Source: Chlamydiales bacterium
GTDB taxonomy: Bacteria > Chlamydiota > Chlamydiia > Chlamydiales > JAJFMA01
Direction of reading: 5' to 3'
NCBI GenBank assembly: GCA_030679955.1
Contig: JAUXSF010000033.1
Span: 80,789-144,788 of the forward strand
DNA length: 64,000 nt
Part shown: positions 50,712 to 57,343 of the stretch, one piece after another
Layout of the letters: each line of letters begins with the position of its first letter
Numbering within the stretch: position 1 is the first letter of the stretch
Notes under the pieces: model-generated
The model's database searches: none
Seen by the model: the letters and a program-made list of their open reading frames with translations, nothing else
Told to the model about the DNA's origin: nothing
Position numbers and translations under genes: made by a program

Positions 50712-51260
50712 CTAATCGTGCTCTCCACATGATACCTCTGTATTGGCTTCTCGATTTAAGATCTCAATAGCCTCCTCAAAGCTTTCTTCACAGATTTCGC
50801 AGAACCCAATTCCACTAGCTTTTCGCGTTTCATAGCTTATTTTTTCATTTGCAAAGATGATCAGAGCTATGAAAGGAGGAGGATAGTATTCACCGCTGGT
50901 GCGTTGAAATGCGAGCATATAGGATAGACTAGAAGGTTCAAACGGACCGTTGGTTTGCAATATAGATTTGCTCTGGTTGTCACCTAGCATGGCAATTGCC
51001 TTTTGAACTTCAGGCACAAATAGTCTCCTAGCCTCCTCCAGCTCTACCATTTGATCGCTTTTAAAGGTCACAGAAACGCACTCCCGTTTTTTACGATTAA
51101 AACAACCTTCGGCTGTTTGAAACCGCCCATTGCGTTTGTGCAAATCTTTGGCATATTTCTGTAAGCCTTTCCTGTCCCAACGCTTTCCTTCAAAGCCCTG
51201 GAGATTAGCTGAAAAGATCATGAATAAGGACGCTAATGTAAATGCCAGGGTAGAGCGCAT
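50712..51260 (-). CDS. signal-peptide protein, paralog 2 of the Rhs-adjacent pair (candidate immunity protein)
   Basis: 182 aa. Signal-like MRSTLAFTLASLFMIFSANLQG. Shares EGKRWDR.GLQ.YAKD, LFVPEV.KAIAML, EYYPPPFI, IFANEKISY and GFCEICEESFEEAIEILNREA with the neighbour. Confidence 0.5.
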   Translation of the reverse strand: MRSTLAFTLASLFMIFSANLQGFEGKRWDRKGLQKYAKDLHKRNGRFQTAEGCFNRKKRECVSVTFKSDQMVELEEARRLFVPEVQKAIAMLGDNQSKSILQTNGPFEPSSLSYMLAFQRTSGEYYPPPFIALIIFANEKISYETRKASGIGFCEICEESFEEAIEILNREANTEVSCGEHD

Positions 51261-51272
51261 GCTTAATACCTA

Positions 51273-54800: not shown

Positions 54801-57343
54801 AATAGTTCATGGTTGGGTGAGTATATTTCCTTACAAATAACATTGCCCAGTGCATCGTAGCGCCATTTTGTATAAGTGCCGTTAGAGGCAAGATGCAGTC
54901 GCAGGGCACCATCCGAATTGTATTCGTTGCGTTCTGTTCTGCCATCGGGATGCTCAATAAGAGTCGGACGTCCTCGAATGGTGTATTTCTTGTGTGTGAT
55001 ATTGCTCAGAGCATCTACTTCTGCGGTAATATTGTTGGCTATATCGTATTCCATTTTGATGACATGCCGTTGACCATTACACTCGGGCAAGGTGCTGGAA
55101 ATAACTCGGTCTCGGTCATCGAACTCATAATCCGTTGTATTGCCAAAGATATCTGTCGAGGCGATTCGATTGCCTCTCCAGTCATAACGATAGCGTTTTT
55201 CGAGTCGCTGATTTTCTTGTACAACTGTCTCGCGTACTAGCTGATTCATGCGGTCGTACTGATATTCCGTATAAAAATCCGAGCCGATGATTTGTTCAAA
55301 AAGTTTGTTGCTGTGTTCGTCAAAGCGCCTGATGGTTACTTCTCCAATGGCATTTTGCTCTAAAATGACATTGCCAAAGCGATCATATTCCCATGACAAT
55401 GTGAACCGATAGGCTCCACTGGCGTCATAGTGGTCTTGGCGCGAAATCCAACCTTCGTTCGTATAGGTATATAAAATAGATCCTAAAGACCTCTCTGAGC
55501 CTGTATCAACATCATAGTAAAACTCCTCAACCTTTTCAGGAAGTCCTAAGCAAGGAGTTTCTGTGCGTGGCGTTGTTCGGGTAATCTTGCGGATTGTCAC
55601 GCCATTTAAGTCGTCGATTCCTGTTCCGCAGCCATCATCCGCCGTGACTGAAAGCAGCGTAGCATTATCGTCATACTGGAAAAATTGTCGTTCTTCGATG
55701 ACTCCTGCGACCGAAGTTAGTTGCGCAACTACCAGATTTGTTCCGGCTTTATAAAGATAGGTAGTGTGACGACCGTTTGGAAATGTCTCGGATGTTTTGA
55801 GATTGAAGTTGTCTTGTGAGTAGGTTCGAGTAACAACATAGCGCTCACAGCCGTTATCAATAGGAGTTCCTGTAACATCAAGCTGCGGGGCAATAGCGCA
55901 GGTGCCGCTTAAGTCACCTAACAGTGCCTCTTCTGTTACATTGTGCTTAGCATCATAAGTAAGATGACGGCATGAGTGAACTTGGTCTTGAGCATTTAAA
56001 AGTGCGCTGCAAATAAGGTTGCAGTGCTGATTTGCGGCCGCGGCACCCCAATAGAGCCTTTCTGTTGCATATTTTTGATACTCGGCGTCAGATCGGCCAA
56101 GAAAGTGCTCGATAGCTTCTAGTCTGTGGCCATCGTTATAGCGGTAAATGGTTCGCCTATTATAGGCATCGCGGACCTCAGTGACTCCCTTTTCATAGAA
56201 GAAGCTATACGTCAAAATAGATTCAGGACCGCTTCCTACGGGGCTTTTCAGATGCTTAACGCGTCCAAAAGCTATGTTGGACATATTGAGATTTAAGGAT
56301 CTGCCACACACGGAATTGATACCCTGGTGGTAATATCCTATGTCTATAAATCGTTCGTCCGGCCCCTCTCTTCGGCACAGTCTTTCTTGAAAGGAACCAA
56401 TGTTTTGATAGAAGTAGTTTTCCTTAGGACTATTTGGGGTAATTGCTTCCGTAAGATAGGATTTGTTTTTTGCATTAACTTTGACTGTATAAGAAGCAGT
56501 ACGATTGTCACCTGACTGTAAACCGATAACGCGTGTGCTACTTTGCGGTATTTTCGCAAAATCGATCAAGCGCTTGCTATCTGGCAGGAATTTTGGATAA
56601 TCAAATTTCAGGGAACCAAATGTCTGACTTCCGCTGCTGTTTGTCGCAGTGATACATGCCATTCGAGAGTTTTCGTCACAATGCCGATAGCAAAATCTAT
56701 TGCCACTGGGCAACGTTTCTTCGACGCTGGTGTAGTAGATGGGTAGTAGATCTGCTTTTAACTGCTTCAAGCGCTCGAAAGTACGCGTACATCCATTACA
56801 TAGCTGAGCCGTAATTGTATCTTGCGCTGCATCAAACGAGGCTGTCTGATTCTTTAGATTCATGTTGCCGCCGCAACAGTCCCAGCTCGTATTAGTTAAA
56901 CCGGCATCCAACTTAAGAACGCTTTGTGCACCATTACAGTTTTTTCTTAGGTGCCGAGCGTGCTTCCAATGCCCATCATGATACCATTGCACCGGTGTGG
57001 TGGTTACGTAACTCACCACGCCTCCGGAAGGCTCCGGTACTACTAGTCGATACTGATCATTCCATACGCCTATAAATGCTTCTTTTGGATGGTTATAAGT
57101 CCAGCTATTGCATAGGCTAGCGCCATCCTCCCAGTCCCCAGAACAGTAGAAGCGCTGAAAAGTCAAAGTATCGGGGCCAGGCACGACAAAATCAATTCGT
57201 GAAAAACTGTAGCTGCCTGTTACAGCGTTAACACAGCCTGCTACAACGCCTGATGGGGAGCCACGCACCTCAGTATGCTGAATATAGTTTTCTGAATAGC
57301 CTAACAGCGGTAAAAAGTAGAAAAACAGATAGAATATGCGCAT
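51836..57343 (-). CDS. Rhs/YD-repeat polymorphic toxin with signal peptide and variable C-terminal toxin domain
   Basis: 1835 aa. Signal [18 protein letters not shown]. Dozens of YD repeats (Y.YD..G....). Canonical core end [42 protein letters not shown]. A 285-aa C-terminal extension (nt 51839-52693) follows. Confidence 0.9.
   Translation of the reverse strand: [1835 protein letters not shown]

Follow-up and report, generated by a model that had tools for sequence, protein, structure and literature searches.

A predicted Sec-exported Rhs toxin with an esterase-like C-terminal domain and candidate periplasmic immunity proteins in a Chlamydiales genome

What role a YD-repeat protein followed by two small exported proteins might play in an obligately intracellular lineage is the question raised by a three-gene locus on the minus strand of a Chlamydiales MAG, analysed here within a window of 64,000 nucleotides. 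The Rhs gene is separated from the first small ORF by 5 nt, and the first small ORF from the second by 12 nt. NCBI annotates both small proteins as hypothetical, from a 'Chlamydiales bacterium' MAG. The original prediction of an 1835-aa signal-peptide Rhs/YD protein, with a core ending in DPTGL and a 285-aa C-terminal (CT) module, was confirmed in its coordinates, as were the two signal-peptide paralogs 5 and 12 nt downstream. The locus is placed inside a surface-polysaccharide gene cluster, and the same window also encodes a Ulp1-type effector-like protease. The genes and a promoter-like site are:

51836..57343, minus strand: predicted Rhs/YD-repeat toxin gene, 1835 aa, with signal peptide, DUF6531, YD shell, Rhs core and C-terminal hydrolase
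51273..51830, minus strand: candidate immunity protein 1 (185 aa); a signal peptide is present, a lipobox Cys absent
50712..51260, minus strand: candidate immunity protein 2, 182 aa, 66% identical paralog of protein 1
52005..52032, minus strand: promoter-like TTTACA-16-TATAAT within the CT coding region, ~175 nt upstream of immunity gene 1, matching 11/12 consensus positions

The promoter-like sequence could possibly serve as an internal promoter for the immunity genes; the match is to the consensus only, and shuffling predicts as many such sites as the region contains.

The shell of the large protein contains the following elements:

57290..57343, minus strand: predicted Sec signal peptide, residues ~1-18, read from the sequence
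57092..57232, minus strand: DUF6531 domain, residues 38-84 (PF20148 in Pfam, 28.1 bits; cut-off 24.1)
52694..52924, minus strand: Rhs-associated core domain spanning residues 1474-1550 (82.5 bits for TIGR03696; cut-off 32.5)

Domain matches include RHS_repeat (E 1e-64), DUF6531 (E 2.7e-6) and YD_repeat, with the DUF6531 motif kept in homologs. Full-length relatives can be aligned over their whole length at 28-38% identity; a hydrophobic N-terminus is present in each of the 12. Solved Rhs cocoons matched by the shell comprise 7q97, 8qjb-d, Tse5, a teneurin-like protein and TccC. The core terminus follows the pattern DPIG...(18)...DPTGL, with DPTGL at nt 52694-52708, and this end of the core is predicted to be both the autoproteolysis site and the border of the variable CT.

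The CT module (285 aa, nt 51839-52693, minus strand) had been regarded as unassigned, a view now superseded by its membership of a recurrent Chlamydiota Rhs-CT family with an alpha/beta-hydrolase fold. Its main features are:

52622..52681, minus strand: CxxC-9-CxxC zinc-ribbon-like insert, residues 1555-1574, at the CT start
51839..52594, minus strand: predicted toxin domain with an alpha/beta-hydrolase fold (residues ~1584-1835), made up of two helices at the N-terminus and a 7-stranded core
52163..52165, minus strand: predicted nucleophile Ser1727 in a D-H-S-K-G-G elbow, invariant in 25/25 and 31/31 relatives
52019..52021, minus strand: predicted catalytic acid Glu1775, at a position where 30 of 31 distinct CTs have D and one has E
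51908..51910, minus strand: predicted catalytic His1812, on the loop that follows the final strand and identical in 25/25 and 31/31 relatives

An exhaustive HMMER search of 1.84 billion representatives returned 27 CT relatives, nearly all being C-termini of 1700-1900-aa proteins, or their fragments, that begin directly after D-x-Y-G-L; the family is almost confined to the C-termini of ~1800-aa signal-peptide Rhs proteins. The AF2 model (pLDDT 92) adopts a minimal alpha/beta-hydrolase fold, and all its Foldseek matches are lipases, esterases, cutinases or thioesterases of this fold. The matches, including monoacylglycerol lipases and acyl-protein thioesterases, have probability 1.0, TM scores of 0.4-0.5 and 8-13% identity, a distant similarity that leaves the substrate class uncertain. 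Family members show weak Pfam matches to Cutinase, DUF676, DUF900 and Abhydrolase, and the Pfam scan of the CT and its family gave no significant match to DUF2235 or another Pfam lipase family. The resemblance to a nucleophile elbow noticed earlier holds up, the elbow serine aligning with the invariant serine of the relatives. Within the model, Ser1727 lies between strand 171-176 and helix 179-188 and Glu1775 follows strand 216-222, placing the triad residues at canonical strand-loop positions. Alignment and model thus support the assignment of the CT as a probable alpha/beta hydrolase with a conserved Ser-acid-His triad. The window copy has a D-H-S-K-G elbow and is alone among 31 CTs in having Glu as the acid, so its activity could be altered or reduced.

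The zinc ribbon proposed at the start of the CT is present as a motif but does not belong to the CT family, and comparison with relatives indicates a lineage-specific add-on. The CxxC-9-CxxC pattern is missing in them, except for a half-motif in P0005, and Pfam zinc-ribbon matches are all sub-threshold.

The two small proteins are 66% identical (E 1e-85) and share the tail GFCEICEESFEEAIEILNREA, whose DNA differs at 8/66 nt, six of the changes being synonymous within the 21 shared residues. This preponderance of synonymous changes indicates that the identity stems from purifying selection and not from recent gene conversion. While the shared tail stands as originally described, its 'CEICEE' cysteines are not kept across the family; what the family does conserve is the motif E-[TS]-[YF]-x-E-A-[LI] at the C-terminus. 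With no relative in Pfam or PDB, the small proteins constitute, as judged from their sequences, a new family of predicted exported proteins. Signal-like N-termini occur in most members and a lipobox-like Cys in at least 31 of 97. The structure model, built from two sequences only, reaches a pLDDT of 44.

Examining the surroundings of the relatives reveals a close linkage between the CT and the small proteins. Homologs of the latter lie directly downstream of the CT in six of seven Chlamydiota genome loci (L002-L007), the seventh contig ending earlier; all seven genome matches are to Chlamydiota, and the metagenome contigs carry no taxonomic labels. The metagenome scan used the small protein, not the toxin, as query and yielded 113 relatives, with 80 loci kept: 47 CT-preceded, 28 too truncated and 5 ambiguous (one with a CT 300 nt upstream). 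Where the upstream sequence is long enough to judge (52 loci), 47 have the first copy right behind the CT, and an Rhs core precedes 29/31 N-terminally complete CTs. A locus carries 1-5 tandem copies, whose identity to one another has a median of 56% and lowest values of 23-50%. The three-part arrangement of Rhs shell, CT and exported proteins is repeated in about 90-100 related loci. Rather than residing mostly away from Rhs genes, the small-protein homologs are tightly and specifically CT-linked over ~90 loci.

Sequence identity also breaks sharply within related loci, with shells remaining 80-96% (97% in one pair) identical while identity is lost at or after D-x-x-G-L. Between loci L045 and L053, a shell identity of ~80% extends to DLYGL and then drops to 21% in the CTs and 30% in the immunity proteins. 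L040 and L083 are ~97% identical over the shell and the first ~140 CT residues, with identity lost across the last ~90 CT residues and immunity proteins 58% identical. Orphan modules consisting of a CT fragment and an immunity gene are found in L014, L028, L031/L050, L064 and L073. Orphan modules and CT replacement form the pattern described for Rhs/CDI systems (PMC3150448). All CT variants seen so far belong to one alpha/beta-hydrolase superfamily.

The best explanation, with a probability of roughly 0.68, is a three-gene operon for a polymorphic Rhs toxin that is exported by Sec, bears an esterase/lipase-type payload and is countered by immunity proteins in the periplasm. The triad, the fold and the CT linkage over ~90 loci favour this reading, in line with the lipase/esterase-like toxin with duplicated periplasmic immunity initially proposed. 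The 1550-residue YD-repeat shell would enclose the C-terminal 285 residues, and an aspartyl autoprotease would free the CT at ...DPTGL|, as solved Rhs and Tc proteins suggest. The payload would be a minimal serine esterase using Ser1727-Glu1775-His1812, with a putative Asn-Gly oxyanion element after strand 3, and its most likely substrate an ester-linked envelope lipid (phospholipid, lipoprotein or LPS acyl chain) attacked from the periplasmic side. The paralogs would go to the periplasm, probably as soluble proteins here and as lipoproteins in many relatives, where they would bind and block the hydrolase, sparing the producer and its kin. The toxin would have to cross the outer membranes of both producer and target. 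The ORFs scanned in the window yielded no recognisable device for translocation across an outer membrane, and Chlamydiae are not known to possess a T6SS, points that weigh against access to a rival's periplasm.

The locus resembles several known systems, each in part. With the Rhs systems (Dickeya dadantii RhsA/B-RhsI; T6SS-linked RhsA, Tse5 and Tre23) it shares the YD cocoon, a core end of DPxGL, a variable CT toxin with an adjoining downstream immunity gene, orphan modules and abrupt identity loss past the motif. It differs in carrying an N-terminal Sec signal peptide instead of PAAR/VgrG-linked delivery, in a lineage without a known T6SS, in its apparently exported rather than cytoplasmic immunity proteins, and in CTs confined to one superfamily where theirs have unrelated folds. 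T6SS Tle/Tli pairs (Tle1 being DUF2235 / Tox-ABhydrolase-1) likewise feature a serine alpha/beta-hydrolase toxin and periplasmic immunity proteins with signal peptides or lipoboxes; Tle phospholipases work in the periplasm, and Tli3 is an outer-membrane lipoprotein (PMC13133936, PMC9860674). Tle proteins, however, are free T6SS cargo, whereas the window toxin is fused to, and predicted to be enclosed by, an Rhs shell, and its immunity family is related to none in Pfam. Teneurin-like proteins (TLPs) are Sec-dependent YD-shell toxins of diderms and monoderms with a downstream immunity gene and no known delivery machinery, described in a paper that makes no mention of Chlamydiae (PMC13018210, Raoelijaona et al. 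2026). The window locus is predicted to share these traits, but the window protein is ~600 residues shorter, Pfam finds in it no NHL propeller or other TLP-specific domain, and the match to TLP structure 9ifo is limited to the C-terminal third of the shell (residues 1093-1550), no better than the T6SS Rhs match. As in the TcB-TcC cocoon of Tc (ABC) toxins, to which the core region is related (TccC2/TccC3/YenC2, E 1e-9 to 1e-12), an Rhs cocoon would encapsulate and autoproteolytically release a C-terminal toxic enzyme; unlike these, the window toxin is a single polypeptide without a TcA-like pore-forming partner and has immunity genes, which are no Tc feature. No TcA-/TcB-type Pfam domain was detected in the Rhs protein or in the 30 neighbouring ORFs scanned. 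Tox-ABhydrolase-2 is described as mainly proteobacterial and lacks an immunity gene in Parachlamydia, and both Tox-ABhydrolase-2 and -3 are listed with cytoplasmic-type immunity, namely Imm-SUKH for both and additionally Imm66/Imm69 for the latter (PMC3482391, Zhang et al. 2012). Judged by these descriptions, the window family, with its predicted exported immunity, appears to differ from the two.

A host-directed effector is an unlikely alternative, in which the cocoon is secreted into the inclusion or host (e.g. by Sec and then type II), the esterase hits host or inclusion-membrane lipids in the manner of Tc toxins and many lipase effectors of intracellular bacteria, and the small proteins only shield the producer's envelope during periplasmic transit. 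The phylum is obligately intracellular and all genome matches are to Chlamydiota, the 30 neighbouring ORFs scanned contain no T6SS or other device for injecting bacterial cells, shell and CT are conserved jointly, as for a fixed function, and an effector-like Ulp1-type protease is encoded nearby. Zhang et al. also propose such roles for several chlamydial toxin domains, including a Parachlamydia alpha/beta hydrolase (PMC3482391). Endosymbiont toxins aimed at the host, however, typically lack immunity genes (PMC3482391), which are nearly always present here in up to five diverged copies, and no TcA-like partner was found among these 30 ORFs. Orphan modules and sharp CT/immunity swaps on near-identical shells are signatures of inter-strain conflict and not of an unchanging target in the host. 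The Tc-like payload first entertained as an alternative is accordingly disfavoured by the immunity arrays, orphan modules and CT/immunity polymorphism, while the absence of a T6SS noted with it holds for the 30 ORFs.

Far less probable is that the small proteins are periplasmic helpers, such as lipase foldase-like chaperones or export and surface-anchoring adaptors, instead of immunity proteins. Lipase operons with a downstream periplasmic foldase exist and offer a precedent, and the small proteins, which have no assigned fold, appear to be exported and always follow the hydrolase gene directly in the same orientation, apparently translationally coupled across the 5- and 12-nt gaps. Their variation in copy number from 1 to 5 with paralogs down to 23-50% identity in one locus, their retention beside truncated orphan CT fragments and their exchange along with the C-terminal part of the CT nevertheless fit specificity-determining immunity better than a generic chaperone. 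A CT inside the cocoon is moreover expected to be unfolded until release (PMC11461821). The least probable reading is a non-toxic surface or adhesion protein with a teneurin-like shell, whose hydrolase remodels the cell's own envelope under regulation by the small proteins. The shell is as close to bacterial teneurin-like proteins as to T6SS Rhs (9ifo, E 8e-29), Rhs proteins are predicted chlamydial outer-membrane proteins (PMC2811131) and the locus is within a surface-polysaccharide cluster. Yet even bacterial teneurin-like proteins have been shown to be toxin-immunity pairs (PMC13018210), and polymorphism and orphan modules are unexpected for a housekeeping remodelling enzyme.

Returning to the Sec-exported toxin with periplasmic immunity, the joint diversification of CT and immunity on a conserved shell makes inter-bacterial antagonism the most likely use, either between chlamydiae or against other bacteria in a shared host cell or niche. 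That one CT family stays with the shell throughout would also be compatible with a conserved role, be it in housekeeping or directed at the host. The recurrence of the three-part arrangement points to a real and fairly conventional toxin-immunity system in an unusual setting, an obligately intracellular lineage.

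The locus is built around a gene for an 1835-aa Rhs protein, which is followed by two genes for small exported paralogs, the candidate immunity proteins. ORF calling places the three genes as follows.

51836-57343, minus strand, Rhs gene, 1835-aa ORF
51273-51830, minus strand, small gene 1, 185-aa ORF
50712-51260, minus strand, small gene 2, 182-aa ORF

All three ORFs are co-oriented and separated by gaps of exactly 5 nt and 12 nt, and these coordinates bear out the three-gene layout and the spacing given in the original prediction. The Rhs protein scores above the curated thresholds for RHS repeats (PF05593, E 1e-64, 9 stretches of the protein), YD repeats (TIGR01643, 119 bits), DUF6531, and the Rhs-associated core (TIGR03696, residues 1474-1550, 82.5 bits against a cut-off of 32.5), so the YD-repeat shell and core terminus read earlier from the sequence are confirmed at curated Pfam and NCBIfam thresholds. 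The core ends in DPIG-(18)-DPTGL, where DPTGL (residues 1546-1550, nt 52694-52708) represents the PxxxxDPxGL-type motif marking the boundary of the C-terminal module (CT), and the CT follows as 285 residues encoded by nt 51839-52693. Over its whole length, the window's shell is 28-38% identical to the shells of full-length relatives, whose CTs are 25-32% identical to that of the window. The N-terminus of the Rhs protein resembles a Sec signal peptide as judged by eye, and equivalent hydrophobic N-termini occur in 12 of the 12 full-length relatives; signal peptides and lipoboxes were assigned by eye and simple pattern. The locus was also recovered in an independent assembly (L001), and an HMM scan of all six frames of the window detected one CT and two small genes; no further copy of the Rhs, CT, or immunity genes turned up.

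Neither Pfam nor NCBIfam has a family that matches the window's CT, no hydrolase family is hit at E<=1, and the word-indexed homolog search returned nothing for the CT, whether run singly or with 25 aligned sequences. Its relatives surfaced instead through exhaustive HMMER and pattern scans, with 27 obtained by the exhaustive HMMER scan of 1.84 billion representatives. Most are the C-termini of 1700-1900-aa proteins and begin directly after D-x-Y-G-L; others are contig-truncated fragments that start within the Rhs core or miss the CT start, and two (P0012 and P0025) match the zinc-ribbon motif only. The closest relative, P0004 (33% identity), is a complete 375-aa protein in which a signal peptide and a DUF6531-like N-terminus are joined directly to the hydrolase with no YD shell; this protein may represent a naturally shell-less form or else result from a deletion or from assembly.

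Four CT residues, Gly97 (of the N-G motif), Gly130, Ser177, and His262, are invariant in the 25-sequence alignment. Among 31 distinct near-complete CTs from genomes and metagenomes, the Ser, the His, and the N-G glycine are each present in 31/31, and the acid column contains Asp in 30/31 and Glu in 1/31, the sole Glu belonging to the window's own CT. The predicted triad in the full protein is Ser1727, Glu1775, and His1812. The AlphaFold2 model of the CT, built on the 25-sequence alignment (pLDDT 92, pTM 0.84), comprises seven strands alternating with helices and positions each of these elements canonically: N-G follows strand 91-95, the Ser lies between strand 171-176 and helix 179-188, the acid comes after strand 216-222, and the His occupies a loop past the last strand. 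The CT contains both a Ser-acid-His triad in canonical order and an oxyanion-hole motif after strand 3. The elbow of the window's CT reads D-H-S-K-G. At its Asp position most relatives carry Ala, Gly, or some other small residue, so the first 'small' position of the small-x-Ser-x-small elbow is atypical in this copy.

Foldseek comparison of the fold against PDB produced 53 matches at E<=1e-3, and the 50 listed are almost all serine hydrolases, including monoacylglycerol lipases, carboxylesterases, cutinases/PETases, and acyl-protein thioesterases, with a probability of 1.0 at TM values of only 0.4-0.5 and identities of 8-13%. A profile search of PDB sequences with the CT family agrees with the serine hydrolase assignment. 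Against Pfam, CT relatives give sub-threshold matches only, to the Cutinase, DUF676, and DUF900 families and to generic Abhydrolase models, in each case around the nucleophile elbow (for example, Cutinase at 18.5 bits vs 25.9 and DUF676 at 14 vs 20.3). DUF2235 (Tle1) is matched by neither the window's CT nor its relatives, and the CT remains below the gathering threshold of the curated lipase/esterase Pfam families Cutinase, DUF676, DUF900, Lipase_3, and DUF2235/Tle1. Conservation and structural modeling thus identify the CT as a predicted conserved serine alpha/beta hydrolase outside the curated lipase families. The invariance of Ser1727, the CT model, and the Foldseek and Pfam matches at the elbow therefore support the earlier guess of an alpha/beta-hydrolase nucleophile elbow. 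The zinc ribbon was considered as the functional core of the CT and rejected, as CxxC-9-CxxC is not conserved in relatives; it is a lineage-specific element, with a half-motif kept in P0005 only. A link between the CT and Chlamydia DUF687 was set aside as too weak, involving 1 of 25 members at E 0.012 over 44 residues.

The small proteins, registered by NCBI as hypothetical proteins of a 'Chlamydiales bacterium' MAG, are 66% identical to each other and have hydrophobic N-termini without a lipobox cysteine. They end in the common tail GFCEICEESFEEAIEILNREA. The DNA encoding this tail has 8 differences in 66 positions, and six of these are synonymous changes inside 21 shared residues; the tail identity is therefore kept by selection, not by recent gene conversion. 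Pfam, NCBIfam, and PDB yielded no relative of the small proteins, used singly or as a profile, and the word-indexed homolog search with a small protein found the two paralogs themselves only; AF2 on a small protein from the two paralogs only reached a pLDDT of 44. First-round phmmer E-values for small-protein homologs go down to 5e-17. Most of the homologs at genome loci contain a lipobox-like cysteine (ITSC, ASGC, LTAC, and similar), and the most conserved element of the family is the C-terminal E-[TS]-[YF]-x-E-A-[LI]-x-[IK]-V. 'CEICEE' was rejected as a zinc site of the small proteins because its cysteines are missing in relatives.

The association between the CT and the small genes was assessed across genome and metagenome loci (L-numbers). 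Narrow CT-derived peptide patterns, run against one genome for each GTDB species, identified 7 loci, in Waddliaceae, Parachlamydiaceae, Parachlamydiales, and unclassified chlamydiae; all are Chlamydiota MAGs, a distribution that rests on 7 loci from narrow patterns. Between 1 and 5 small-protein homologs directly follow the CT in 6/7 of these loci, and in the seventh the contig ends first. The metagenome scan, covering contigs without taxonomic labels, was seeded with the small-protein alignment, avoiding bias toward the toxin; it recovered 113 small-protein relatives, and 80 loci were kept. HMMs of the shell, the CT, and the small protein, mapped onto all loci, show a near-universal same-strand order: the Rhs shell comes first, followed by the CT and by one to four or more small genes. 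Among the 80 metagenome loci, 28 are too truncated to judge adjacency and 5 are unclear, one of these having a CT 300 nt upstream; the CT directly precedes the first small gene in the other 47 (47/52 assessable). The Rhs core, in turn, precedes 29 of the 31 CTs having an intact N-terminus. The original prediction had named small-protein homologs lying mostly away from Rhs genes as speaking against it; these two counts therefore do not refute it. In two loci, L039 and L055, a further full Rhs gene belonging to this family begins after the immunity-like genes and in the same orientation, which means that tandem Rhs-hydrolase loci exist in some genomes.

Divergence after DPxGL, immunity immediately downstream, and orphan CT/immunity modules are hallmarks of Rhs/CDI loci (Poole et al. 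2011, PMC3150448), and in sequence the CT family and its small genes appear to display features described for Rhs and CDI systems. The shells of metagenome loci L045 and L053 are ~80% identical up to DLYGL, immediately after which the CTs share 21% identity and the small proteins 30%. Metagenome loci L040 and L083 are ~97% identical over the shell and the first ~140 CT residues, with divergence in the last ~90 CT residues (the acid and His included) and a small protein 58% identical. This pattern suggests that cassettes are exchanged through recombination within the CT, and the position of the break suggests that the last ~90 hydrolase residues determine immunity specificity. CT replacement is seen here in related loci, the window's own shell being without a close relative for comparison.

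Orphan modules, consisting of a partial CT and another small gene downstream of the main pair, occur in L014, L028, L031/L050, L064, and L073, and the orphan CT is usually the C-terminal half. In L014 (800-1111), a 103-aa CT C-terminal fragment lies between two small genes. In L031 (1655-2641), a small gene is fused in frame to a second, partial hydrolase domain (its C-terminal half), and a third immunity-like gene comes after this orphan fragment. The six-frame HMM scan found no orphan CT/immunity modules in the window, a feature that is optional for Rhs toxins. Tandem small genes within a locus are 23-91% identical (median 56%), and ~1/3 of the copies are closer to a copy from another locus than to their own neighbours.

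Housekeeping and surface-polysaccharide genes make up the chromosomal region around the locus. A HAD hydrolase, three nucleotidyl-transferases, glycosyltransferases, a WavE-like ORF, and an ABC-2 transporter are encoded near the locus, with rpsB-tsf-pyrH-frr, the suf operon, PBP, and Wza farther out in the window. The G+C content is unremarkable, and the Rfam scan of the window returned three tRNAs only. An RHH (DUF6290)/ParE type II toxin-antitoxin (TA) pair is present directly upstream of the Rhs gene (58471-58979, minus strand); the WavE-like ORF between the pair and the Rhs gene (57487-58260, minus strand) matches positions 52-206 of a 305-position profile and may be truncated. The TA pair, the possibly truncated WavE-like ORF, and the flanking glycosyltransferase genes together suggest a surface-polysaccharide cluster into which the Rhs gene and the TA pair have inserted.

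An imperfect inverted repeat (50278-50529) occupies the space between convergent genes at 49586-50242 (plus strand) and 50712-51260 (minus strand), with 104-nt arms that are 82% complementary and a 44-nt spacer. Its 38-nt exact core, CCCCTAGCCATACCCGAAAAATGAGGGTTGGCTAGGGG, occurs within the window in the two arms only. The repeat has no Rfam match and may act as a bidirectional terminator or be MITE-like. A sigma-70-type promoter-like site, TTTACA-16-TATAAT (52005-52032, minus strand; 11/12 consensus, pattern match only), lies within the toxin-domain coding sequence ~175 nt upstream of the first small gene and could allow immunity-gene expression independent of the toxin; in the promoter/terminator scan of the region, sites were no more numerous than in shuffled sequence. 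Elsewhere in the window, a 768-aa ORF (10721-13027, minus strand) has at its C-terminus a Ulp1/C48 cysteine-protease domain (E 3.6e-8), of a type that chlamydial deubiquitinase/deSUMOylase effectors are known to contain. The 978-aa ORF at 20240-23176 (minus strand), which adjoins a Wza-type polysaccharide export gene, and the 639-aa ORF at 7597-9516 (minus strand) gave no Pfam match at E<=1e-5.

As judged from sequence, the locus has the tested defining features of a Rhs polymorphic toxin, and it differs from T6SS-delivered Rhs effectors, Tc toxins, and the curated lipase families. T6SS-delivered Rhs effectors are defined by an N-terminal domain or nearby T6SS genes that the window's locus does not match: Pfam and NCBIfam detect no PAAR, VgrG, or clade domain in the Rhs protein, which has a signal peptide and DUF6531 instead. 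PAAR, VgrG, Hcp, TcA, and other injection-machine domains were found neither in the Rhs protein nor in 30 scanned neighbours (all but 15 of the window's 48 ORFs of at least 150 aa were scanned), and within this set the earlier remark that no T6SS is visible holds. The BC component of Tc toxins has a TcA partner and a TcB-type N-terminal half with a beta-propeller, both unmatched in the Rhs protein and the scanned ORFs, and TccC matches only the Rhs core of the window's protein. Bacterial teneurin-like proteins (TLPs) are also Sec-dependent YD-shell toxins with downstream immunity and an acknowledged delivery gap (PMC13018210). For the window's Rhs protein, a possible member of this class, the TLP structure 9ifo aligns with the C-terminal 460 residues of the shell only, and no NHL or other TLP-specific domain was detected in the Rhs protein by Pfam (TLP set: TIP domain, FN-plug, NHL propeller, YD-shell).

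Rhs proteins in environmental chlamydiae have already been described (PMC2811131), as have chlamydial polymorphic-toxin domains and the alpha/beta-hydrolase toxin domains Tox-ABhydrolase-1 to -3 (PMC3482391). Relative to these reports, the CT family appears to be new, the Tox-ABhydrolase domains being compared by description, not alignment. The predicted exported immunity-like family, with no relative in Pfam, NCBIfam, or PDB, also appears to be new, as does the apparently phylum-restricted (7 genome loci), recurrent, and visibly diversifying association of the CT with immunity-like genes.

The anatomy, the fold, the conserved triad, the predicted export signals on all three proteins, the linkage, and the polymorphism are shown by sequence comparison and structure prediction, and a mechanism can be proposed around them. 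The Rhs protein would leave the cytoplasm via Sec, as its predicted signal peptide implies. Because the shell matches the solved cocoons of RhsA, Tse5, Tre23, and TccC, it may enclose the CT and release it by autoproteolysis at DPTGL. The CT would act as an esterase/lipase on envelope lipids from the periplasmic side, and the small proteins would neutralise it in the periplasm. Two reports on T6SS Tle phospholipases describe periplasmic action and Tli3 as an outer-membrane lipoprotein (PMC13133936, PMC9860674).

The target could be bacterial or a host. The immunity arrays, the orphan modules, and the replacement of alleles speak for inter-strain conflict, and host-directed endosymbiont toxins are usually without immunity genes (Zhang et al., PMC3482391); for these reasons a bacterial target is favoured over a host target, at roughly 3:1. 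A caveat applies to the window's own copy, which has the D-H-S-K-G elbow and Glu, not Asp, as the acid. Environmental chlamydiae are obligate intracellular bacteria that are not known to have a T6SS. We tentatively propose, at a probability of about 0.3, that these bacteria engage in strain-versus-strain warfare within shared host cells or in the extracellular stage, through a phylum-specific Sec-exported Rhs cocoon that would bring a serine esterase across the rival's outer membrane independently of T6SS, with the diversifying CT C-terminus and the periplasmic immunity arrays providing kin recognition.

The analysis assigns a fold and a predicted catalytic triad to a previously unannotated Rhs C-terminal domain, and the CT and exported immunity-like families recur together in roughly a hundred environmental loci, with 7/7 genome hits in Chlamydiota. 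The locus bears on T6SS-independent Rhs delivery and is a tractable model for how signal-peptide Rhs cocoons reach their targets, a question shared with teneurin-like proteins (PMC13018210). A complete, actively diversifying predicted toxin-immunity system in an obligately intracellular phylum not known to have a T6SS argues for competition of chlamydia against chlamydia. If the proposed strain-versus-strain warfare is true, it would represent a novel route of Rhs-toxin delivery among diderm bacteria, as well as direct evidence of interbacterial antagonism in an intracellular niche.
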